This document shows positions 12,001 to 58,724 of a DNA stretch of 64,000 nucleotides, in pieces; the first letter of the stretch is position 1, and every line of letters begins with the position of its first letter. Origin of the DNA: a virus (Duplodnaviria > Caudoviricetes); the IMG/VR virus record IMGVR_UViG_3300028591_000014, positions 38,957 to 102,956 of that record; one strand, written 5' to 3'. The position numbers were made by a program, and so were the translations under genes. The notes under the pieces were generated by a model. It did no database searches and was not told the origin of the DNA. It was given only the letters and a program-made list of their open reading frames with translations.

Positions 12001-13518
12001 TATGCCGTATGCCAGAGCCATCTAAACCTTTTCTATATCAGAAAACTTGCTAGGATCATACCCGCCAGCAGTCATTCTGCTAGAAATTTCAGATAGAACT
12101 TTTTCCATATCTGCCCCAGCGTCCATAGATTTTGACAAAACTCGTTGAGACTGTCCATCCATTGCCTCTGAAGATGTTTCATGGTCTCTCATAGCGGCAG
12201 TCCACCCTATCTAAGATGCTACAGTGCCTAAACCTAAAGCAAATCTTACATAAGGATTTGCGCCATATCCAGCTCTAACAAGACCTTTGGCAATCCACTT
12301 TGAAGCTTGATCTGTAGCCATAAGTCCCATAAACGATTGCCAATCACTCCAAGATGTACCCATTTCTGGGAAATTATATGCCCATCTAGTTGGATCTATA
12401 AACATTCCAATTAATCCGGAATTGGCGTTTTCTTCCTGAAGCTTCCTATACTCAGGACTTATTTTGTTAGGGTCAAAAAGCCAGTTTCCTTCCTTATACT
12501 GTCTCGCAACATCCTTTACACGGGCTTCCTTTTCCTTCTGTAATCTGCCGTAGTATTCGCGGTGTTTATCTATCTTAGACTTTAACGCATACGGGTTCTA
12601 TGAATAATCGTTTATGAGATCATCAAAAGAGTCATCGTCTGGAAGACTTTGTTTTATTGCCCTTCTTGTAAATGATCCTGATTTTTCAATCTGATCTGGC
12701 AATAGTTTACCAATAGCATTTGCACCAGATTGTAACACATTTCCAACCAAAGAAGCAAACTGTTCTAAACCTGTCAACGGAAAATTATACCACTGCCCAT
12801 TTATATTCGGATCTACCCAAAGATTTTGTCTAACGGCTCCCAACATCGCCTTCTCACTATTCCAAAGCTTATCGGTGTCGTAAAACATATCGACAAGTAT
12901 CTCAGACTTCTTTCCGTCTGTTTTTACTCTATGCAAGAAGTCGTCAATTTTGTATTGAAGGTCTTGCATCTTTTCAAGCATGGGAACTAGTTGTTCTTGC
13001 GGAGTTCCTAAGCTGAGTTCTTGATTATACCTATTTTGTAACTCTTTATACTGTTTTATGTTTGTTACATAATCATCGGCATCATCTAGATCCTGTAATA
13101 AGTTTGTAACTTCTTCTAACTTTGTTTGTGCAGATGACAAATCGGCTTGCAGTCTTTTTTCATGAAACATTCTCCACGCATCTGCAGGATTTGCATTCTT
13201 TAGTCTTTCTGAAAAACTGCCATCACCAAACAATGAATTCGATATGTTTGAAAAAGCATTACTTATCCATGATTTGTCGTCAGAACTACCTGTAGTGATA
13301 ATATTTCCCTCATCGTCTGCACGAGGAATTGCCCATTCTGGATTAACCGTACCGAATTCTGTATAATTATCTTCAACCGCATTAACAAGACCCTGTTGAT
13401 ACGGGGCAGAAATGGATTCTGCACTGCGTAGTGTACTACTACGCAATGCATCCAGCATCATTGCCCCGTCATTGTATCTGGGGTTGTAAATAAACTAGGT
13501 TTTATTCTTTTTATTCAT
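1..13518 (-). CDS. Giant virion RNA polymerase polyprotein (crAss-type) with zincin-like peptidase domain; 3' end beyond window; >=4,506 codons with TAG read-through
   Basis: All 18 main minus-strand ORF fragments from 373 to 13461 share one frame and are separated only by TAG; no in-frame TAA/TGA found in the gaps. ATG at 13518 (MNKKNKT*FIYNPRY). Catalytic-type motif TGSDFDVDK (DFDVD 1456-1470), RIPTQGMSS, and HEAWH (6319-6333) followed by EEEMAEDF. Confidence 0.9.
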
Positions 13519-31954: not shown

Positions 31955-32791
31955 CAGTCCCATGTTCCATACAAGGCGTTAGCTTGTATGCGTTCGTGCG
32001 TGCTCAACACGAACTGCTTTATATCTCTATAAAGATCAGACTATATCTTCATCCACTTGGGATGTTCCGCATTTCCCCTCACTTGAGGGTACGTCATTAC
32101 AGACTAGTCGTTGAACCTTCAAATCTTCGGAGTCGATACGAAGTCCTTTGAATCTACCCGTTTTGATATATGCGCCCGTATTTACATACTTCTAAACAAG
32201 CGTCATAAAATTGCGTTTAGATCCTCCAAACTACTTCAACACATTTTTAAAACCTAGAATAGTAAATGACTTTCCGTTGAACACGTTTGTAAAAGTATAT
32301 GCTTTTTGTATATCATATCTTCCACGATGGCCGTGCAATTTACTCCACTCGTCATTCTATTCTTGTGTAACCCATTCTAGGTTTTCAAACCAATTGTTTT
32401 TGACGTTAAAGTCTTTGTGATTAACCTCTTCTTTATTGTAAGGATTGTCAATAAATGTCTCCGCTACTAAACGATGGACCCGATATGTCCTTCTGTAATT
32501 ATTTCTAGATAATGTTACTAAAGGATAACCATCTTTATCACAACCTTTGTTTAAATATCTATTGGATATGTACGAATACACCTTGCCGTCATTTGTGATA
32601 CTATATCTATCTTCCCATCCTTTAATTGGTTTGCTTACGATTTGCTTGGCTGCTGATTGTCCATTTTCATTATTCATAATTCTATGTTTTTAATTGTTAC
32701 TCTACGGTATAAAAACTTTTAGGATTTTCCAGCAATTAACGGAATTTATTATCCGCGCAGTTGCCTGCACGTGTGGCTCAGCCCAGAGCTA
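31955..32791 (-). mobile_element. Group I self-splicing intron (837 nt) in the MCP gene
   Basis: 5' splice site after U with P1 GTGGT/GCCAC (U.G wobble); IGS GGGCTGA pairs the 3' exon TCGGTCC (P10); P AATTGCTGGAAA, Q AATCAGCAG, R TTCAACGACTA, S AAGATATAGTC; terminal G; splicing restores the reading frame. Confidence 0.92.
32036..32677 (-). CDS. Intron-encoded NUMOD4/HNH homing endonuclease (213 aa, 3 TAG)
   Basis: KPIKGWEDRYSITNDGKVYS (NUMOD4-like), VHRLVAETFI.NP..KEEVNHKDFNVKNN..ENLEWVTQE*N; first non-TAG stop is TGA at 32036. Confidence 0.85.
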
Positions 32792-33164
32792 ACCACCTCT
32801 CCTCAAGAGCGAGGTAGATAGGCGTATTGTTCAGACCTGGAGTGATTCCATTCTCAATAGAGCTAGAAGTAACCTCCTGACCATTCCACTTAGCCCAGCG
32901 AATGTTTACAGCGTGATCTGCATCGATCTGCACAGCCCACTCAAACTCGCGGTTCTCAATAATCATCGTCTTGCCCAGACCACCAGTAATCAGGTCGATC
33001 GTAGTAGAAACACCGTCGTCCTTAGTACCGAACACCAGTGAAAGCAGACCAGAAACCTCATGAGGCTTGGTGAGCAGTGCGTTAGAAATCATATTCTCAT
33101 CTACCAGGTCACTGAAACGACGTCCGCGATACAGCTGGAGATTGTTAAGTAAAGTATTATTCAT
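32792..33164 (-). CDS. Major capsid protein, exon 1
   Basis: MNNTLLNNLQLYRGRRFSDLVDENMISNALL...IENREFEW...PIYLALEERW; same codon style as exon 2. Confidence 0.9.
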
Positions 33165-39531: not shown

Positions 39532-41595
39532 TTAAAAACTGAATAAAGGTACGTCGTCTTGTACCGTATCGTCATTAGTATTAAACCATTTATCTCCGAA
39601 CAATGGAAGATCAAATAGTTCTACTTGTTTGTTTTCTTCTTTTGCAGCTGACACTTTTATCTAGAATAACTCTTCTCTGTATATCATTACCATACACAGT
39701 GCTATCAATCTATCTACGTTTTTAACACCATCGTTTTCAATAAGCTCTTCTATAAGTGGTTCGCTGTATACTCTTTCCACATTAGGGTGTCCAGGCTCAT
39801 ATTCTTCTGTAAGCCATTCAAGGATAAGTCCTTCTCCATACGCCCTAATCTGTTTTGTCATATGGCAGCCTTTTCGGCGCTGCACTTTACTGTCTTTAAA
39901 GACTTCCGTAATAATCTTATCTGGTTGATCAGCCAGAAGGTAGTCACAATGTTTGTTTGTGAAGTAAGGGTAAATACCCTTACGTTCATTCTCAAACAAA
40001 AGTCGTGCATTATAAAATGTCAGTAGTTTTCGCACGTTTTCATAGTACTCTTCAGCTGTATTTGGTCGTCCTGTATATTCTGCTACAATCACGTCGTTCC
40101 ATGCTTCTCCTGCTCTAACGCGTTTAAAAATGAACGTTGATCCTAAGGAGTTAGTGAATGACTCGTCGTGATCATACGGGTCACAGCCGCCAATGTATAA
40201 TCCGAAGGGTGGGTCTGGGATTGGGTATTCCCAGATAACTACTGATCCTTCTGGTTTGTCATCGTTTTTAAGTGGATATTTTGTTATATCTCCTGTTTTC
40301 TTTTCGGTAGCTTTGACCATACCGTTACCATCCCAACTAAGATCTACTATATGCTTCATATTCTTAATCTTAGTGTTCGTACGTATTCTGGTAAGCTAAT
40401 CCATTAATAATTTTCTTGGGAATATATTCTTTCCAAGCTCTAAGCAAGCTTCTGCTGGTTTAATAGGTCTTTCTGATATAAACCTATCTATAGACTGCTA
40501 TGTAGCCCCTCCGTCTTTTACTTTATTGCGTTGGGCTATAAGTTCTTCAATAGCTTTATCTTTTATGCTATTTCCGTCAGCATCCATATATGCAGGGTTA
40601 CCATTCTCATCATCACCCTCCATGTTCCAATATGCAGGAGCAAAGAAACCGCATTTAGTATTCTCTGCACCGTCATCCCATATGTTAGGAAAGCCTAGTA
40701 TATTGAATGCGTCTGGGTTGTAGAACATATTCTTTAGACCATCAAAAGCACCTCCTTCAGTACCACCTGTACCAAATGCTATAAGTAGTCCAAATGCTTT
40801 ACCATCGTCTGTTTCTACGGCAGGTTGTTCTACTCGCCACGCTGTTTCTAGATTAGGGAATTTACCGCCCTCCTCAAATAGTACTAGTTTACCACGAGTA
40901 CCACGAAGACGTTCTGGGTCATTCTTTAGAGTAATGCCAGTTATAGCCGATAGATATCCCTATTCAGTTTCTTTACCAAACTCATCTTTTACTTTGAATC
41001 CAGAGACACGCTCCATCCTAGTTGAAGTAAGTCGCTACTTTGACCAGTCTGTATTCTTGTCTATGAAGTCCATTATCTACCAGGCTTTGGTGAGTATCCC
41101 ATCGCCTACCAGAAACTTTTGCTCAGACGCTACAGCGAAATTCTTTGATCCTGGGATGAGTTCATAGTTTCTAACTAACATGCTAGCCCCTTTAAAGGAA
41201 TAACCTCTTTGTCTGCACTTAAGGACCGCCATGTGTTTTCCTTCATCTTCTGCTTGTTCTATAGCATGGAAATAATAATAGTCTGAATCCCAGAACCTCG
41301 GGAAGCCAAATATACGCTCTCTTCTAGTACGCTTGTTTCCGTATCTATCTGTATATTCAACTTCGTCGAGTTTCATTATGGGACAATAGTTTAAATAGAA
41401 ATAATGGTAGCCTGTAATAGCATCTCCGTCATCGGCTACATATCCATTAAGACATCTATCTGTCTCTCTGTCCCAATAAGCATTGTAGTCTGTAGTTCCC
41501 TTCGGAGCTAACGTATAACATCCATGCTCCTTGAAGAATATAGCAGCCTAACAGAATTTTTTAGAATTGTATATCTTTTTATTAAAGTCTACCAT
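39532..41595 (-). CDS. terL: Terminase large subunit (~687 aa)
   Basis: ITGYHYFYLNY, LKCRQRGYSFK (Walker A region), LVLFEEGGKF (Walker B), FGTGG, YIGGCDPYDHD and NVDR nuclease motifs, all in one frame with TAG read-through. Confidence 0.92.
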
Positions 41596-41682
41596 ATATT
41601 ATAATAATTATTCACGGGCGTAACAGTCAATTATAGACTGCAATATACCATCTGTCTTTAAGTGTTTTTGTTGTTATACAAG

Positions 41683-48388: not shown

Positions 48389-49792
48389 TTACATGTATGC
48401 AGATATAAGTGTATCGGCTTTATTAGAAGAAGCCTCCCATGCTTCTTCGTCAGCTACTGTATATGGGAAATCTTCAAGAGCATGTGTGACACTGGAAAGC
48501 TCTCCCCAATATGTATCTGCTTGATATGTACTTATAGCAGATCTTGGAACCCATAAATTTAGAACTCTACTCTAATTAGCACGAGTTCCACTAACATCGA
48601 TGAGTTTGTCTTGTTTTTGCGAACTGTATGCAGTTACTGATGGAGGAGTTACATTGTTTATAATAAGATGTTTAATTCCACCTTCATTAGTACCACAAAA
48701 ACAACCAGTCTGTACTGTAGTTACATCTCTTAGATATACAATATCTTTATCCTATCTTGAATTTCCATAACCATTGGCACAAAAAGTACCATGACAGTTA
48801 TTACCTCCCTGATCAAATCCACCAACAAGACTTGTGAGTTTAGGAGCATATATATACTTAGAACCTCCACAAAAAGCACCCGTTGAATTTACAGAAGTAA
48901 GATTTGCGTAATTAAATACATTGGATACATTCTCACTATACGCAAATGGAATTCCGCCGTCGATCGTAGTTATATCATCCACGTTTATCTTACTCAGGGC
49001 TGTACAACCATAAAATGCACTTTTTTCTAATGTAGTCAAAGTACTTGGAAGCACAACTTCTGTAAGATGAGTACAGCCTTTAAATGCACTATCATATAAT
49101 GCAGTAATAGACCCCAAGTTACTAATCTTGGTTATACCAGAACCACTAAATATAGCCCATGATGTACTAGTTAATAATGGACAATTTATATCTATAGCCA
49201 AACTAGAACAGCCTCTGAAAGCGTTGTTTCCAATACTAGTCACGTTAGATAAACCATTTGGCCCAAGTGTTGTTAAATTTGTACAACTAACAAATGCTTG
49301 TTGACCTATCGTTGTAATACTGCTAGGAAGATATATAGACGTCAGATTAGTACATCCTTCGTATGACTTATTATCGACATTGGTTATTGTAGTAAGAGAT
49401 GTAAAATACTGAAGTTCATTGAAACTAGTGATTGTGGTATTGTTTTTAAATGCAGGAGCAGTCGCAAATGTAACTGCAGCAGCATCTGTTTCTTTAACAC
49501 CTATTCCATCGCTAGAACATGCAGCAATACATACTCTTTCTACTTCAGGATCTGCAAAATGTATATAATATGCACCAACGCTTATATCCAAATCAGAGAA
49601 CGCATTTGTTAGATATTCTACTTGATATCTATACGATGTAGGTACAGATAGGTAACCGGACAGATTACTACTCGAATCTAATGTACCAGAGTAAGCCAAT
49701 TCATACAACTTCTGTATGACACTGGAACTTACTGTCTCTCTAGTCTAATATTGCCTATAGGACTGAGCCTATTCTATTTTTAAGTGTGTCAT
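48389..49792 (-). CDS. BspA-type leucine-rich repeat (LRR_5) protein (~467 aa)
   Basis: HFADPEVERVC...SFNELQYFTSLT, repeated LP..TTIG..AF..C..L; ATG 49792, TAA 48389. Confidence 0.85.
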
Positions 49793-52700
49793 ACGTTATA
49801 TAAGTTATAGAATGTATTAAACGATTTGTTATTAGGAATACCAACTATATCTACAGATGCTACATTGGTCATACTATCGACCTTAACTCCAGATGGAGTA
49901 AGTGCTGTAGGATTAACAATACTTATCTGCGTAGGAGTACCAAGTTCGTATTTAGTAATTCCAGATCCTTGTGGTATAGAAACATTTATTGTCGTACCGC
50001 TAGCATCAACCTGAGTAAGCTTGGTATTTGCCGTAAGATCAATACTTGATGTAAGACCAGTACAGTTCTGTATAGACAGTGTCCTAAGTTCTGGCATCTC
50101 TGAGAAGTTCATTTGATTTACAGACTGCCCATCTATGGTGATATTGTTAGTAAGTGCTGTACATTCATCTAAGATTAAACCTTGACAGTTAGGCAGATAT
50201 TTAAACAAATAACTACCGTTATATGTCTGTAGACTCTACAAGTTTGCTCCAGATGTACTAAAGTCTATGGTACCAGTAAGAGCAAATAGATCAACTTTAA
50301 ACAAACTATTCTTACCTATTGCGGAACCAAATTGTGTTTGCCATGCCGTATTTATAGGATCAAACATATGCGTATTTATAGACTGTACTACTGCAGTAAT
50401 ATCATCTTGCACGAGGATATTCTTTGTACACTGCATTGTATAACCAGATGCGAATAACACAGATGCTGTAAGTAAATACTGTTTTACAGACTGCGGAAAT
50501 GCACCATCTGCTATTATCTTTATTCCATTCTTAGATGTGCTCTTACTAATTCTTATATATGGATCCTGAAAACTCTCCAATTGATCTCCGCTTTCTCCAG
50601 TAGTAAAACTAACTTCAGCATTGTCATCAAGTCTCTTTAGCGTATATGTAACACTTCTTACAGTAGCAGAGTATGTCTGATTTGAATCTACAAAGAAGCT
50701 TGCAGCAGTACCGCTAGCAGGAAACTCTATGTATCCAGGAGATTCTTTTAATAATGTAGTACTTTCTGGAGTGTGATTTATAAACAAATCTGTTGGATAT
50801 GATGCTGCCAATACGTGCAATGTAGTATTGTATGGAACACCAGATGCAGATGTGTATATTTTTACATCATACCCAGTATCATTCGGGTTATTTATACCGA
50901 AGTTACTTTGAGTAGATTGTATATACGCTATGTTATCTATAGTGTCTTCTGCCTGTATTACCGTCAATCCCATATATCTTCCAGAAGGAGTACTACCATC
51001 TACGGGACCTATTGCCCATATATAGTTAGTAGAACTATCTTCTGCAAGTGAGAATCTTGTAGCATTTAATGACGCAGAGTTTCCTTCAACAAGCGTTACA
51101 TTGCCCTGTCCATCTACAGTTACATTACCACCGATATTGATCTGTATGTACTGACGTTTATGGTCTACAACCAGTCCCGATGAGTTCTTTGTAAATACAG
51201 CATCTCCGAACCAACCTTTAATGTTGTTCAACTGTTGTGCGGTAAGATCTGTTCCAGTATCCTTCAATACAATATAACCCTTAAGACTTGTCTAGTTACC
51301 AAGTTGTGCGATATAGCTAAGCTCTGTATATGTGAGTAAGTTACTAGCACCGACCGTTGTATCAGACCAATTAACCTTATCCATAATAAGATTGTACTGA
51401 CTAAGATCTGCACCAGAAGTAACAAGACTGTTTAACCAGCTCTTAACCATCTTAATAGACTCTACAGTAGAACCAGTACTGCCAAGTAACGATATATTGT
51501 GTACTTCTGTTGGGAATGTACCAATTTCAATTCCTGAGTCTCTACTTATTCCGTATACTTGACTGAACTCTGCGGAAGCACCGCTAATCACGTTTGTGTG
51601 CCAGAACGAAAGGTTATTCCATGTTGAGTTGTTCATCCATATTGTATATATGGTATCTGGCAATTCAAGATTATCAAAGTTGTTACCAGACTGCGAACTA
51701 TACATGGTTGTAAGACCAGAACCCATTGCCTAAAGTTCGGTAAGAGAACTTATGTCGTAGCTGTATATAAGCGGGTTTGTATCTGTTTGATTCAACTGTC
51801 CACGGATATTCAAGAATTGTAATGCCTGGAATACATCAACGCTACCCTGTATTTGGCAACCTAAAGATGCGAGTGTACCAGTATACCCAGGACCGCCGGC
51901 TGTAACAGGTATTCCAACAGAAAGTCTTTTCAACGGAGAGCCAAGTACTTCAGAATATATACCATCCAAAGTAACACCATCTAATCCATGTGATATTTCA
52001 CTAAGATCTATATCCTCCATAAAGTTCGCTCCATAGAACAATATTGGGTTCTTTGTAGCAGAACCGATAGCCATATTGAATTCGAACGGATGCAGTTTAT
52101 CCACTGATCTAGTAGCTTGAAGAACTCCGTCCTTTGTGACTGACATGTACGTTTGCTTATTCGGAGTTATTCTTACATATTGATTAGATCCTTCTGTCAC
52201 ATAAGCACGAACGTATATATAATGGTTTTTGTAGTCTCCACAGAACCACTTTGCATCATAGTAGTCCATCGAATTACTCAACCACCAGTGTCTATGTGTC
52301 ATACGGGATCCTTGTAACCAACTAAGCCATGTAGTATCTCCATTTCCAGATTCTACGTATTTGAAGAATCCGCTTTCATTGTACATGATTTCGCACCACT
52401 TTGCAGCGTAGTTATTATCAAACATATCTGAAATAATATTATACTTCAGACCAGCTGCAAACAAAGCATCTGCTACCTTTGGTACTACACCATTTATCCA
52501 CTCGTCCCATGCCTCAAGAGCGTCAAATAACCAGTTAGATGTCACTACGTTTCCATTATCGTCAGCGCTTCTACCAGATATTGCATACGTTGTTATAGAA
52601 AGTTTAGTATTACGATCTATAGGTGGATTAAATGCTATACCACCATCGTTCTTATTACCAAGAGCAATATCCATATCCCAAGGCTCATAGTGCCAATGCT

Positions 52701-55700
52701 GACCATCATATGTCTTCAGCTGTGCATTACGCTCGAGCGAGTCAACAAGACCGAATCTGAGAACGAAGATATAATAAGCAGCCATCTTATACAAATCAAG
52801 ATGCTGCGCTGCCTCAGCTTCGAATTTAGCCTGATTGTGATATGTGCTTGTAACCCACTCATGGAAGTCTATAAATGGTTGTGCTTTTCTTACATACTTT
52901 GAGTTTGGATTAAACTTGTCTATTCCGTTCTTTGTATCATCCTTTATAAGATCATCTTCATCTGGATAGATCATTTCAAACATCTATTCCCAGTTATACA
53001 TTCTTGTGACGTTTCCAGTAGATTCGTCTATAATAGACACAACGTCTGTAAAACCGGCGTGTGTCATATATGACGTAAACGGTACGTTAGAACCCACAAC
53101 TTCAATACGCAACACATTCTTATTATCCCATACTAGGTTAGAAGACGTATCATCGTCCTTGTGAGTATTTGTAAGACAGAACGGATCTGACGGAACTGCA
53201 TATATACTACGCTCTCCAAAGCAGAAATCAGACTTCTTGTCGTCCATCCATACATATTGTCCTAAGAACGTACGAGTTCTATCTCCTGCCTCATTGTAGT
53301 AGAATACTGCGCACGGGAATGAATCTGGAGATACTCTAATGTCGTATGGGAATGGTTGATTAGTAACATCTCTCCACAACGTATTCTGCTTATTTGGTAC
53401 ATTGCTATATCCTTCTACCCATGTACCATCCTCTCCGATAGTGGTGTCGTTGTGGTGTACAACTTGGCTAGTAGAGAACAACTGAGGTTCTGTTCTCAGT
53501 TTAAACTCTCCGTCTATCTGAGCATTAAACCAAGTCTCTTGGATAAGTCTTTGAAGTCCTCCATTGTGTACGCCAGAAGAGTCTGCATAGTTGGCTTGTA
53601 ATACAAACTTGTTCGCAGGAATAGAAGGTTTACCTCCATCTGTAGCAGCTTTCATTACGTACCTATTCTTATTAAGAAGTAGATCTGCTTGCGCAGTAGT
53701 TTCATACAAAGGAACCGTGCCCTCTTTGGATTTGTTTAGCCAGAACTTCATAGATGTTATAGGATAGTGAAGCGTAGACTGTCCGTGCTTTCTAATCTAT
53801 ACATTGTTTATTTTGAAGTTCTTACTGGCATCAGAAGGACAGAATCTTTCGATTGTGACATTTGTAGTAGATCCGTCTTTATCAGAATCTCCTCTAAGTA
53901 TATCAGAAAGATCTCCAGAAATAAGAATAGTATCAAGCTTGTTTTTGCAGAGATCAAAACTTATCTTTCCAGACAAATCAAGGATATTATTGTGTTCTGC
54001 TATCTGCGTCTTGTTTTGGCTGTCATACAGATAGTTATTATAAGCATCTGTATAAGTTATAGCGTAGTCGTAAACCCTTATATTATATACACGAACACCA
54101 GAAGCAGATCCTCCGATCTTCATTGTACCACTGTTTGCAAACGACTTTCCTGCTGCAGAAGCAGCTCTTTCAAGTATACCATTGTTTACGATATACGCAA
54201 GGCCTGATTCAACAGTACGCTGCTCTGAATCTTCTGGAATCGAATTTATAATGAACGCAAGCTTCAGACTCTCATTTGCCTTATAATTCGTATGTACAAC
54301 TTCGTTGTTACTATTATCGAACAATGTAGCAGTATCTGGAGTAATCTCTACTCTGGCTCCAACAGGGTCACCTATTACAATAAGCTTATCTTCATTGTCT
54401 ACAATCTTCTCAGACTCAAACTCAACCTCAATGGTCTTACCTTTTGTAAATTCAAAGCTGCTAAACGGTTGAAAGTTAATAGTGGCGTACTCTGTTTGAC
54501 CAGATGTACGGAAACTATTCTTGTACCAGCCAGAATTAGTATTCCAAGAAATGTTTGTAAATGAGGTGTTTACTACCTCATTAACATCTTGCCATTGTGC
54601 AGGGTTAGAACTGTTGTTTGTCTTACCGTATGCAGACATCTTTAACTGGTAATATCCAGTTTCATTAACAACAATCTTATTGTTCTTTGCTATATATATT
54701 GGAAAACTAGCTATCAGAGTTTCTCCAAAATATGCACAAAGGAATGTCTCATGTTCATCCTATGTATATATAATAGGTACGTAAGACAGGGCTGTTGCTC
54801 TTTCCTGATTATTTGCTGTTATAGAAGACAGTATTGTTGGATTTTCATCATCCATACCATCTAACAGTTTCCACACAACAGGAATAGATGTATTAGTTTG
54901 TAAGCTATCCGTATAGTATCCCCACTGTAATGTTTGCTCTTCGTACTGAGTAGCATTCAATAACAGCGAACTAAGAGGGAAGTCTCCACTACTAAACGAC
55001 GTAGATATATTTATAAACTTATTTGTGCTTCCGATAACACTAGATGCTACTGTAAATGTATAATACAACAAATTACTATTTACTATTGTATTACCATCAT
55101 TATACTTTGCTTCTGCCCATATCTGGAGGCTGTGCGTCCCCTCAGATAAATTGGATTGCAGCATTTGTGTCTGTGTTACCTTGGTAGGACCATTTTCTAC
55201 AACATCATACGAAGCTTCTTTACCAGTACCGCCATCGTCGATTTTAAAATGAATCTTAGCTGTACCAGACGTATTGTTACGCTCAAATATGTAAGGAATC
55301 TGAATAGGATCCGTAGCATTATATTTGTCGTAGAATCTAAACGTACTAGTAAGACTTATCTGCAGAAGATTTACTGTAAACGTTTTTGTGTTTCTAGCTC
55401 CAGTAGAATTACCACGACCTTGTATGGTTACTACATTCTCTCCAGGCTGTAAGTAATCGTATATACTAAAATCAGGGTATGCATCTGATTTATTATACCA
55501 CCTAGTAAATGTATTAGACGTTCCTAATGCAGTATTAGCTATTGTATACGTTACAGACAAACTGTCCGATGAATCACCTTCGTCGTTGAATATATTCCAT
55601 TGAAATGCGATTCTAGCACCTATGTTATTAGTGTCTCCGTATCTTACAAACTTGCTGTCAAATCCGCCGCTATTTGTTGCGGTAAGCTCAAGTTTATAGT

Positions 55701-55965
55701 CGCTAGGCCTTACAAAATTGAATAGTTCCAGATCTTGATTATCAGCTGGGTTTTCCTTCCATATTGCGTACGCATCTTCACTGGAGAACATTCTGTATTT
55801 GTTATTTGCAGCATCTTCGTGCATATAGAACGGCTCCTTTAACTTCTTCTATAAAAGTTCTCTAATGGATCCGCCAGACACCTAACCTACAGATGTGCCT
55901 GTTACAGAGTTTGTTCCTGATACCCAGTCAACAAACTCGTTTATTTTACCTGTGTATAAATCCAT
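49789..55965 (-). CDS. Giant multidomain protein with CotH-kinase-like domain and LRR-like C-terminus (~2,058 aa)
   Basis: Seven fragments co-frame, joined by TAG. VLQANYADSSGVHN, FLGQYVWMDDK, GLVDSLERN...WHYEPWDMDIALG. Confidence 0.75.
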
Positions 55966-55967
55966 AA

Positions 55968-56147
55968 TCAATCAGTCCAAGATGCGTCGTCTAACCACGG
56001 ATACTCGTCTATCCAATACCCGTTAGAAAAACAACTAATTAATTCATTTATTTTACTCCAAACAAGATGTACACCAGAATAGACAGCCAAGATAGTTTTA
56101 GAGTTACTGTATACACCCTGAATATCGTGGTTGTTTATTTGTATCAT
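55968..56147 (-). CDS. Small fibre-associated protein (59 aa)
   Basis: MIQINNHDI...AVYSGVHLVW...SCFSNGYWIDEYPWLDDASW; fills the gap exactly. Confidence 0.65.
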   Translation of the reverse strand: MIQINNHDIQGVYSNSKTILAVYSGVHLVWSKINELISCFSNGYWIDEYPWLDDASWTD

Positions 56148-57858: not shown

Positions 57859-58368
57859 TTATGCTTGCTCAAGGCCGCTTTGTGCCTCGCCGCTATCCTC
57901 TGTTGCGGTCTCAGAGTTAGTAGGCTCGCCTTCTGTTTCCGGAAGACTCTGAGATCCCGTCGACGCGCTCTGTTCGTCTTTTGTAGTATCGATATACTCG
58001 ATAAGTTCTACATCCTCAATCTTGTTGATAACAAGTTGAGCAAAGATTTCACCTTCTTTGTACACAGCAGGAATAACATCAGTAGTGGTCATGAAACGGG
58101 CGCTAAGCTCTGTATCGAAATCCTTGACTACAGGAGTATCGCACATACGCAGCGTTTTACCGCATATCGTGCTTGCCGGACGCAGATATCCCTCATATCC
58201 TTCAGGAATATCAACACAAATGCCACTATGACAAACGATGAACAACTGTCCGCGCTCGTTTATCTCAGTAGTAAACTGAGCGACAGTAAGATTGTATCCT
58301 GCACCACTATCTGTGGTACGTGTAGGCGTAACTGCCTTATCTAAAAGTTTCTTAAATTTAATACTCAT
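57859..58368 (-). CDS. Degenerate dUTPase-like protein (probably inactive)
   Basis: IKFKKL..AVTP.R....AGYNL, HSGICVDIPEGYEG and GEIFAQLVI match trimeric dUTPase; motifs II, III and V are altered. ATG 58368, alternative GTG 58383. Confidence 0.65.
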   Translation of the reverse strand: MSIKFKKLLDKAVTPTRTTDSGAGYNLTVAQFTTEINERGQLFIVCHSGICVDIPEGYEGYLRPASTICGKTLRMCDTPVVKDFDTELSARFMTTTDVIPAVYKEGEIFAQLVINKIEDVELIEYIDTTKDEQSASTGSQSLPETEGEPTNSETATEDSGEAQSGLEQA

Positions 58369-58391: not shown

Positions 58392-58466
58392 TGGTTACCC
58401 CGGCCGGTTCACGCCAGCTTCTCGAGGGTTAGAGCCTCGTGTGTTAGCATCATACACCACAGAGCA
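58392..58466 (-). tRNA. Amber-suppressor tRNA, anticodon CUA (atypical D and T loops)
   Basis: TGCTCTG-TG-GTGT-ATGATGCTA-ACAC-A-CGAGG-CT[CTA]AC-CCTCG-AGAA-GCTGG-CGTGAA-CCGGC-CGGGGTA-A-CCA; complete cloverleaf with encoded CCA; anticodon at 58430-58432. Confidence 0.85.
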
Positions 58467-58521
58467 GTGGCTGGTAGGGGAATCGAACCCCTCGGCCGAA
58501 GCCGTTCCAAAACCACCAAAC
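58467..58521 (-). ncRNA. Anticodon-less tRNA-like element B abutting the suppressor tRNA 5' end
   Basis: GTGGTTTTGG-AA-CGGC-TTCG-GCCG-AGGGG-TTCGATT-CCCCT-ACCAGCCAC: closing stem, UUCG hairpin, canonical T arm. Confidence 0.6.
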
Positions 58522-58588: not shown

Positions 58589-58638
58589 TTCTCTACCAGG
58601 GGAACGATCCCTGCATTTGACTGTGCCAACAGTAGAGA
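58589..58638 (-). ncRNA. Anticodon-less tRNA-like element C
   Basis: TCTCTAC-TG-TTGGC-ACA-GTCAA-ATG-CAGGG-ATCGTTC-CCCTG-GTAGAGA-A: perfect 7-bp stem stacked on a 5-bp/7-nt T-like arm. Confidence 0.55.
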
Positions 58639-58724
58639 TACCAATTAACATTTTAACTTTTATTTATGGCGCGAGGTTCCAGATGGCCATCTGAATCTCA
58701 GCCTCCCCCGCATTGGCTGTGTCA

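Follow-up and report, generated by a model that had tools for sequence, protein, structure and literature searches.

A CUA tRNA Gene Upstream of a TAG-Recoded Late Block

The window analyzed here, a stretch of 64,000 nucleotides, belongs to a complete virus record of 102,956 bp (~103 kb) with direct terminal repeats. Matches to PHROG families for terminase, portal and major head protein place the virus among the crAss-like phages. The relatives nearest to it in GenBank belong to the Crassvirales subfamily Oafivirinae; their terminase large subunit (TerL) is ~83% identical. The phage is present in sheep and bovine gut samples. On the minus strand, a 75-nt gene at 58392..58466 encodes a tRNA with the anticodon CUA (58430..58432, minus strand), appropriate for UAG, which we assign as an amber-suppressor tRNA-Gln(CUA). 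Directly downstream is a dUTPase gene (57859..58368, minus strand; PHROG dUTPase, with PF00692 in its homologues) that served as the synteny anchor in this work. The tRNA gene lies within a TAG-free stretch; the first late gene to be heavily recoded with TAG (49789..55971, minus strand; 2060 codons, 8 in-frame TAGs) is on the same strand, ~2.4 kb further downstream, and the recoded block extends from that gene to the start of the window and beyond. When TAG is read through, this fragmented minus-strand block resolves into open reading frames of 5313, 2129, 1275 and 842 amino acids, among others, and 194 in-frame TAGs are found across 27 late ORFs (20,227 codons). The plus-strand early block has none.

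Folded by hand, the tRNA forms a full cloverleaf. The acceptor stem UGCUCUG/CGGGGUA pairs as U1-A72, G2.U71, C3-G70, U4.G69, C5-G68, U6.G67 and G7-C66, three of the seven being G.U pairs. The linker U8 G9 leads into the D stem GUGU/ACAC, which closes the D loop AUGAUGCUA, a loop without GG, and A26 follows the D arm. The anticodon stem CGAGG/CCUCG has 5 bp and carries the 7-nt loop CUCUAAC, with U33; after a 4-nt variable region (AGAA), the T stem GCUGG/CCGGC bears a T loop of only 6 nt, CGUGAA, lacking UUC. The 3' end consists of the discriminator A73 and an encoded CCA. The consensus elbow, G18G19 together with T54-Psi55-C56 in a 7-nt T loop, is therefore absent. An earlier note on this DNA had correctly described the cloverleaf, the CUA anticodon, the CCA, the D loop without GG, the 6-nt T loop, the three G.U pairs and A73. 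The minimum free energy (MFE) fold of the single sequence is not a cloverleaf, and its energy is no better than that of shuffled sequences (z = -0.26); we do not count this result against the tRNA because the covariation described below is decisive.

Codon-Level Assignment of TAG

To assign the meaning of TAG we used the TerL gene (39535..41598, minus strand), which has 7 in-frame TAGs. Scoring glutamine at these sites in 120 database TerL homologues was rejected as circular, since these proteins had themselves been translated with TAG as Gln and all the relatives are recoded too; codon-level comparisons were used instead. At the seven TerL sites, three GenBank relatives together have 16 codons other than TAG, and 15 of these are CAA or CAG. 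In the 2060-codon gene, CAA or CAG accounts for 120 of the 409 codons aligned to TAG, versus a Gln background of 3.5%. Judged by these codons of relatives, TAG is glutamine in the late genes.

Conservation and Covariation of the tRNA

The corresponding loci of relatives were fetched via their dUTPase homologues. In nearly every relative a CUA tRNA occupies the same site upstream of the dUTPase gene. A pattern search in which the anticodon was left unspecified added ~55 further loci, taken from IMG/VR and from rumen or gut metagenomes. Searches of GenBank phages with the tRNA locus by megablast and blastn gave no match, and an exact 17-mer from the anticodon arm, tried as an IMG/VR query, returned one true relative and two chance matches in high-GC coding DNA (L004, L006).

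The tRNAs fall into three groups. Distant relatives, whose dUTPases are 42-52% identical, have a canonical tRNA whose D loop contains GG and whose T loop is GGUUYGA, and they do not encode the CCA; the homologue in NC_055903.1 (CrAssphage cr272_1, 12606-12679) is canonical and annotated as tRNA-Gln. In a middle group, which encodes CCA, both GG and UUCGAUU are retained and the T stem contains a bulge or mismatch. The derived group, which includes the window, has neither elbow motif, and its T loops of 6-8 nt end in YGAA.

Derived-type tRNAs comprise 40 distinct sequences, and all 40 have the anticodon CUA even though the search pattern left it free. U1 and the G10-C25 pair are likewise invariant in all 40. 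The first pair is weak in every case, since A, G or a mismatch is found at position 72. Covariation supports the four-helix cloverleaf. In the 40 derived sequences 99.2% of stem cells are paired, with changes on both sides at 18 of 21 pairs; the figures are 98.9% and 13 of 21 for nine derived sequences aligned with MAFFT rather than fitted to a model, and 94.8% and 18 of 21 for a mixed set of 22 sequences. None of 500 shuffles matched the observed pairing in any of the three sets, and controls with a slid register paired only 32-48% of cells. On this comparative evidence the window locus is under strong selection and is not pseudogene-like.

A Candidate Substitute for the Canonical Elbow

Across the derived group the D- and T-loop sequences change together. 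Nucleotides 6-7 of the D loop are able to pair, antiparallel, with nucleotides 3-2 of the T loop (nucleotides 4 and 3 in 8-nt loops). The combinations observed are UC/GA, UG/CA, GC/GC or GC/GU, and CU/AG, that is, four dinucleotide pair types. Both pairs, D6-T3 and D7-T2, form in 36 of the 40 tRNAs and in 13 of the 16 distinct loop combinations; the remaining three combinations do not fit. When T loops were permuted among D loops the mean was 4.9 and a value of 13 was reached in none of 10,000 runs, a figure that overstates the support since the register was picked after viewing the data and the sequences are related. All other loop-loop registers give at most 8 of 16. A single-pair version evaluated on the MAFFT alignment showed C-G three times and G-C twice, with one exception. 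This pattern suggests that the elbow has been rebuilt rather than lost, with a two-base-pair Watson-Crick contact between the D and T loops taking the place of the G18G19/TPsiC interaction.

Detection by Standard Scanners

Standard scanners, the earlier note had surmised, may miss this tRNA, and they largely do. ARAGORN reported no tRNA in the window, nor did Rfam in its default mode, and a sensitive Rfam scan of the whole 64 kb filtered the tRNA out. Only when the sensitive mode was run on a 1.4-kb slice did the Rfam tRNA model (RF00005) give 33.6 bits (E = 7e-5), against a gathering score of 29. ARAGORN recovers 3 of the 40 distinct derived-type copies, versus all 12 canonical or semi-canonical relatives. 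The silence of ARAGORN and of the filtered Rfam scans is explained by the rewritten elbow. A covariance model of the tRNA family (R1), by comparison, has a single match in the entire genome, the window tRNA, at 91.5 bits, and one match at the syntenic site in nearly every relative. The signal of the window tRNA is thus far above chance.

Glutamine Identity and the Search for Other UAG-Decoding Factors

ARAGORN finds only two canonical tRNAs in the whole genome, for Met and Arg; relaxing its threshold still brought up no CTA anticodon. ARAGORN and R1 combined reveal no CUA tRNA in the genome besides the window tRNA, and no canonical one elsewhere in it that might do the decoding in its stead. 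The earlier note had proposed a search of the rest of the genome for synthetase and release factor genes; our domain search of the genome, which covered synthetases of classes Ic, Ib, II and IId, detected none of these, nor any GatA, GatB, YqeY or release-factor domain.

The origin of the tRNA was approached through the D-arm motif of its canonical relatives, TGGTGTARTGG(N)TAGCAC. In a scan covering one genome per prokaryotic species this motif matched 82 tRNA genes, 66 of which ARAGORN calls tRNA-Gln. The Bacteroidales tRNA-Gln among the matches have U1-A72, A73 and a GUGU..GCAC D stem. Of the features of this tRNA-Gln type, the window tRNA has U1-A72, A73, G10 within a GUGU/RCAC D stem, and U35. 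Its anticodon is CUA, not the YUG of tRNA-Gln, and a single G36A change makes the suppressor. These resemblances, together with the tRNA-Gln annotation of the NC_055903.1 homologue, bear out the fit to tRNA-Gln seen in the earlier note, and on sequence grounds the suppressor is a derivative of tRNA-Gln(CUG) with one anticodon change.

It had also been pointed out that G2.U71, C3-G70 and A73 differ from the identity elements of E. coli tRNA-Gln, and that the tRNA may need a dedicated synthetase. The differences are real. However, A73 and the GUGU D stem are shared with Bacteroidales tRNA-Gln, which also carries U1-A72, so these are deviations from E. coli and not from the likely host lineage. 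Given such Bacteroidales-type features in the acceptor and D arm, and a phage genome in which neither a synthetase domain of these classes nor a release factor was found, a dedicated enzyme is not needed, and that part of the proposal is not supported.

GlnRS reads the acceptor end, G10 and U35, opens the 1-72 pair, and makes no contact with the elbow; CUA suppressors are readily glutaminylated. As a control, GatA and GatB domains were searched for in the genome of B. thetaiotaomicron and were not found, which puts Bacteroides on the direct GlnRS route. The simplest reading is that a host GlnRS charges the suppressor, an inference drawn from Bacteroidales in general. Mischarging of CUA suppressors by GlnRS is known (10.1101/2021.08.26.457843).

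A contig binned as a Prevotella metagenome-assembled genome (L047, 6639-7593, minus strand) has 11 tRNA genes within ~1 kb, including a canonical tRNA-Gln(CUG) whose acceptor, UGCUCCA/UGGGGUA-A, is nearly the suppressor's own. We dropped this contig as a host reference since the tRNA array may itself be phage DNA; it probably is, and it possibly represents the source lineage of the suppressor.

Structured Leader Elements

Upstream of the tRNA, on the same strand, are found in order element A, an A/T-rich block, element B and element C. Element C (58467..58518, minus strand) is a 52-nt mini-tRNA-like three-way junction made up of a closing stem, a GGC-UUCG-GCC hairpin and a canonical T arm, AGGGG-UUCGAUU-CCCCU; its end is one base ahead of the U1 with which the tRNA starts. 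At least nine relatives keep element C, and both its T stem and its middle hairpin show compensatory changes among them; the hairpin loop in relatives has variable inserts of 20-40 nt. Element B (58590..58638, minus strand), 49 nt and also mini-tRNA-like in its MFE fold, has a 7-bp closing stem, UCUCUAC/GUAGAGA, stacked on the hairpin CAGGG-AUCGUUC-CCCUG. Eight different closing stems of 7-8 bp, each perfectly complementary, occur in relatives; in many of these, element B adjoins the tRNA with a 1-nt spacer, and in L027 and L193 its loop is the canonical UUCGAAU/UUCGAUU.

Element A (58671..58719, minus strand) immediately follows the stop codon of the preceding gene and is a conserved, pseudoknot-like structure, as recognized by eye in the relatives' loci. 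It consists of CAGCC..GGCUG, GCGGGG..CCUCGC and a palindromic hairpin around GAUGGCCAUC that is spanned by the second stem; stems 2 and 3 co-vary. The conserved A/T-rich block that follows reaches to ~58645. The nearly invariant motif CCAUAAAUAAAAGUUAAAAUGUUAAUUG also comes after element A. Element A matches no Rfam family, and a scan for sigma-70 promoters and terminators did no better than on shuffled sequences. Element A and the A/T-rich block may act as a promoter or have a regulatory role.

Leaders and an encoded CCA are both missing from the canonical distant relatives, which fits the idea that both compensate for enzymes that read the canonical elbow, such as the CCA-adding enzyme and RNase P, an idea that we hold with low confidence. 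The notion of a tRNA-like leader as an obligatory component was weakened by about a dozen relatives with an unrelated pseudoknot-like hairpin instead. In these derived-type loci (L185, L191, L215, L181, L188, L216, L171, L170, L175, L176, L219 and L218) the 40 nt upstream of the tRNA contain a different conserved leader, CGACAUCUUCUGGCUCAGUCGUUAAAAGAGCCACCCC, possibly an H-type pseudoknot (CGAC/GUCG plus UGGCUC/GAGCCA) that ends 2-4 nt before U1.

Proposed Function and Alternative Explanations

The observations presented here allow us to propose that this gene is the phage's own suppressor tRNA, derived from tRNA-Gln(CUG) by a G36-to-A change, charged by the host GlnRS, and inserting glutamine at UAG; we give this reading a probability of about 0.87. 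The tRNA would be co-transcribed with a TAG-free group of dUTPase/GroES-like genes that is located upstream of the late block of recoded genes. The host glutaminyl-tRNA synthetase would then charge it with glutamine, reading the acceptor end, G10 and U35 but not the elbow, and the charged tRNA would place glutamine at the ~200 UAG codons that lie in frame in the genes for structure, packaging and lysis. In the sub-lineage to which the window belongs, the elbow formed by G18G19 with T54-Psi55-C56 would have been replaced by the Watson-Crick contact between D6-7 and T3-2, while the encoded 3' CCA and a structured leader at the 5' end, here a mini-tRNA with a canonical T arm, might compensate for enzymes that read the canonical elbow. 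Parts of the stretch are present as assembled contigs in 14 RNA-labelled runs from sheep and bovine gut, with patchy coverage over the tRNA and possible DNA carry-over, and such contigs cannot give ends, strand or level.

Several other explanations could account for a tRNA of this shape. A functional suppressor might be charged by a dedicated or unusual enzyme, or insert a residue other than glutamine, with a Pyl-, Lys- or Trp-like identity. G2.U71, C3-G70 and A73, unlike their counterparts in E. coli tRNA-Gln, would agree with this, as would the label 'Pyl' that ARAGORN gives to CUA tRNAs and the fact that tRNA-Pyl also does without G18G19/TPsiC. However, the codons of relatives at TAG sites are overwhelmingly CAA or CAG, none of the synthetase domains searched for in the genome (classes Ic, Ib, II and IId) was found, the acceptor, D arm and A73 match Bacteroidales tRNA-Gln, and the hallmarks of tRNA-Pyl are absent from the window tRNA, all of which makes such charging very unlikely. 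More improbable still is that the gene is a decaying relic of a canonical suppressor and that UAG is read by something else, be it a host suppressor tRNA, near-cognate read-through by tRNA-Gln after inhibition of RF1, or an undetected phage factor. While a relic would account for the missing elbow consensus, the low scanner scores, the MFE fold that is not a cloverleaf and the C33 found in some relatives, it is hard to reconcile with 99% stem pairing, compensatory changes at 18 of 21 pairs and an invariant CUA over 40 distinct copies, in a genome that depends on ~194 in-frame TAGs and encodes no other CUA tRNA or release factor.

The least probable explanation is that of a tRNA-shaped RNA with no role in decoding, serving as a processing signal, decoy or regulatory mimic. 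The row of tRNA-like structures alongside (elements B and C) and the non-canonical elbow could be taken in its favor, but the window tRNA differs from B and C in having a complete anticodon stem of 5 bp, U33 in a loop of 7 nt, a CUA that never varies, and both a discriminator and an encoded CCA, and it is homologous to canonical suppressor tRNAs.

Within the preferred reading of a host-charged suppressor tRNA-Gln, the rebuilding of the elbow could be adaptive, allowing the suppressor to escape host factors that read the canonical elbow and to mature in cis via the CCA and leader; this is doubtful on present evidence. The factors evaded would include tRNA-targeting defence nucleases, RNase P, the CCA-adding enzyme and T-loop modification enzymes, and 3' processing of the mini-tRNA or pseudoknot leader itself would make the 5' end of the suppressor without RNase P. 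If true, the locus would amount to a 'code-switch cassette' complete in itself, maturation route included.

Comparison with Known Suppressor Systems

The tRNA-Gln(CUA) of the NC_055903.1 type in Crassvirales has the same synteny, R1 homology, anticodon, U1 start and role in a code-15 late block as the window tRNA. It has, however, a GG D loop and a GGUUYGA T loop, does not encode CCA and is detected by ARAGORN, whereas the window form has neither motif, a 6-nt T loop, an encoded CCA and structured leaders, and is missed by ARAGORN. The E. coli amber suppressor supE (glnV) is likewise a tRNA-Gln with the third anticodon base changed for UAG, and in both supE and the window tRNA, U35 and a weak 1-72 pair favor GlnRS. 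The window tRNA differs in being phage-encoded, in having A73 and a Bacteroidales-type acceptor and D arm rather than G73, G2-C71 and G3-C70, and in its remodelled elbow.

Absence of the G18G19/T54-Psi55-C56 consensus is also a property of tRNA-Pyl, which reads UAG, and of many metazoan mitochondrial tRNAs; like the window tRNA, these form a full cloverleaf without the canonical D-loop and T-loop signature. tRNA-Pyl has a 6-bp anticodon stem, a 3-nt variable loop, a single nucleotide separating the acceptor stem from the D stem, and PylRS with pylBCD, in contrast to the 5-bp anticodon stem, the 4-nt variable loop and the 2-nt linker (UG) of the window tRNA, in whose genome no PylRS-class (IId) domain was found. 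The window tRNA is distinguished further in that it would serve in a bacterial cytoplasm and has an apparent co-varying Watson-Crick loop-loop substitute.

Suppressor tRNAs and the reading of TAG as glutamine are known in crAss-like phages and have been validated by metaproteomics. Surveys of recoded phages found a TAG suppressor in only ~40% of TAG-recoded genomes (Yutin 2021, PMC7886860; Borges 2021, 10.1101/2021.08.26.457843), and their authors suspected that divergent or non-canonical suppressors escape detection, although none was shown (PMC7886860; 10.1101/2021.08.26.457843). A 101-kb amber-recoded Crassvirales phage was described as having no CUA tRNA and two low-scoring 'pseudogene' hits (2026 preprint, 10.64898/2026.08.21.746148). 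Our literature search, which was not exhaustive, did not turn up any account of this aberrant form. What is new is therefore the structural variant, phage suppressor tRNAs for TAG as Gln being known already.

A hidden suppressor of this kind helps to explain why many recoded phages seem to be without a suppressor tRNA: for one lineage the suppressor is there, conserved and selected, and has gone unseen due to its rewritten elbow. The family covariance model could be used to re-annotate many rumen and gut phage genomes. The derived tRNAs also lend themselves to asking which factors of translation and processing really need the canonical elbow, and they offer a possible scaffold for the design of orthogonal suppressors.

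Variants and Insertions at the Locus

In some otherwise well conserved copies the near-universal U33 is replaced by C33, giving the loop CCCUAAC (L016/L017, 7900-7977; L192, 477-554), and these copies may be impaired. In three more distant relatives, L043 (~1326-1590), L039 and L042 (both ~1200-1590), the CUA tRNA is interrupted between U35 and A36. The insert is ~270 nt or longer and, in L039 and L042, contains an ORF; joining of the exons restores CUCUAAC. This insert looks like a group I intron in the anticodon loop of the suppressor. In the window itself, a group I intron model matches at 32017-32247 (minus strand, 42.4 bits) and 32559-32817 (minus strand, 25.3 bits), against a gathering score of 50. 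Both matches lie just upstream of the major head protein gene and could represent self-splicing introns of a late gene.

Between the suppressor tRNA and the dUTPase gene, an HNH-endonuclease-like ORF is found in L012 (7414-8000), L013 (7413-8000) and L015 (7488-8000), and in the same interval L012 and L013 have an odd tRNA-like gene of ~100 nt with the acceptor AAUGGCG/CGCCAUU and an oversized anticodon region; the interval looks like a mobile insertion. Another odd tRNA-like gene may be present in L009 (4690-4790), where a sequence of ~100 nt directly after the suppressor tRNA has a 9-bp acceptor-like stem, GUCAAAACG/CGUUUUGAC, and ends in ACCA. The same sequence also follows the tRNA in L167, L180 and L204.
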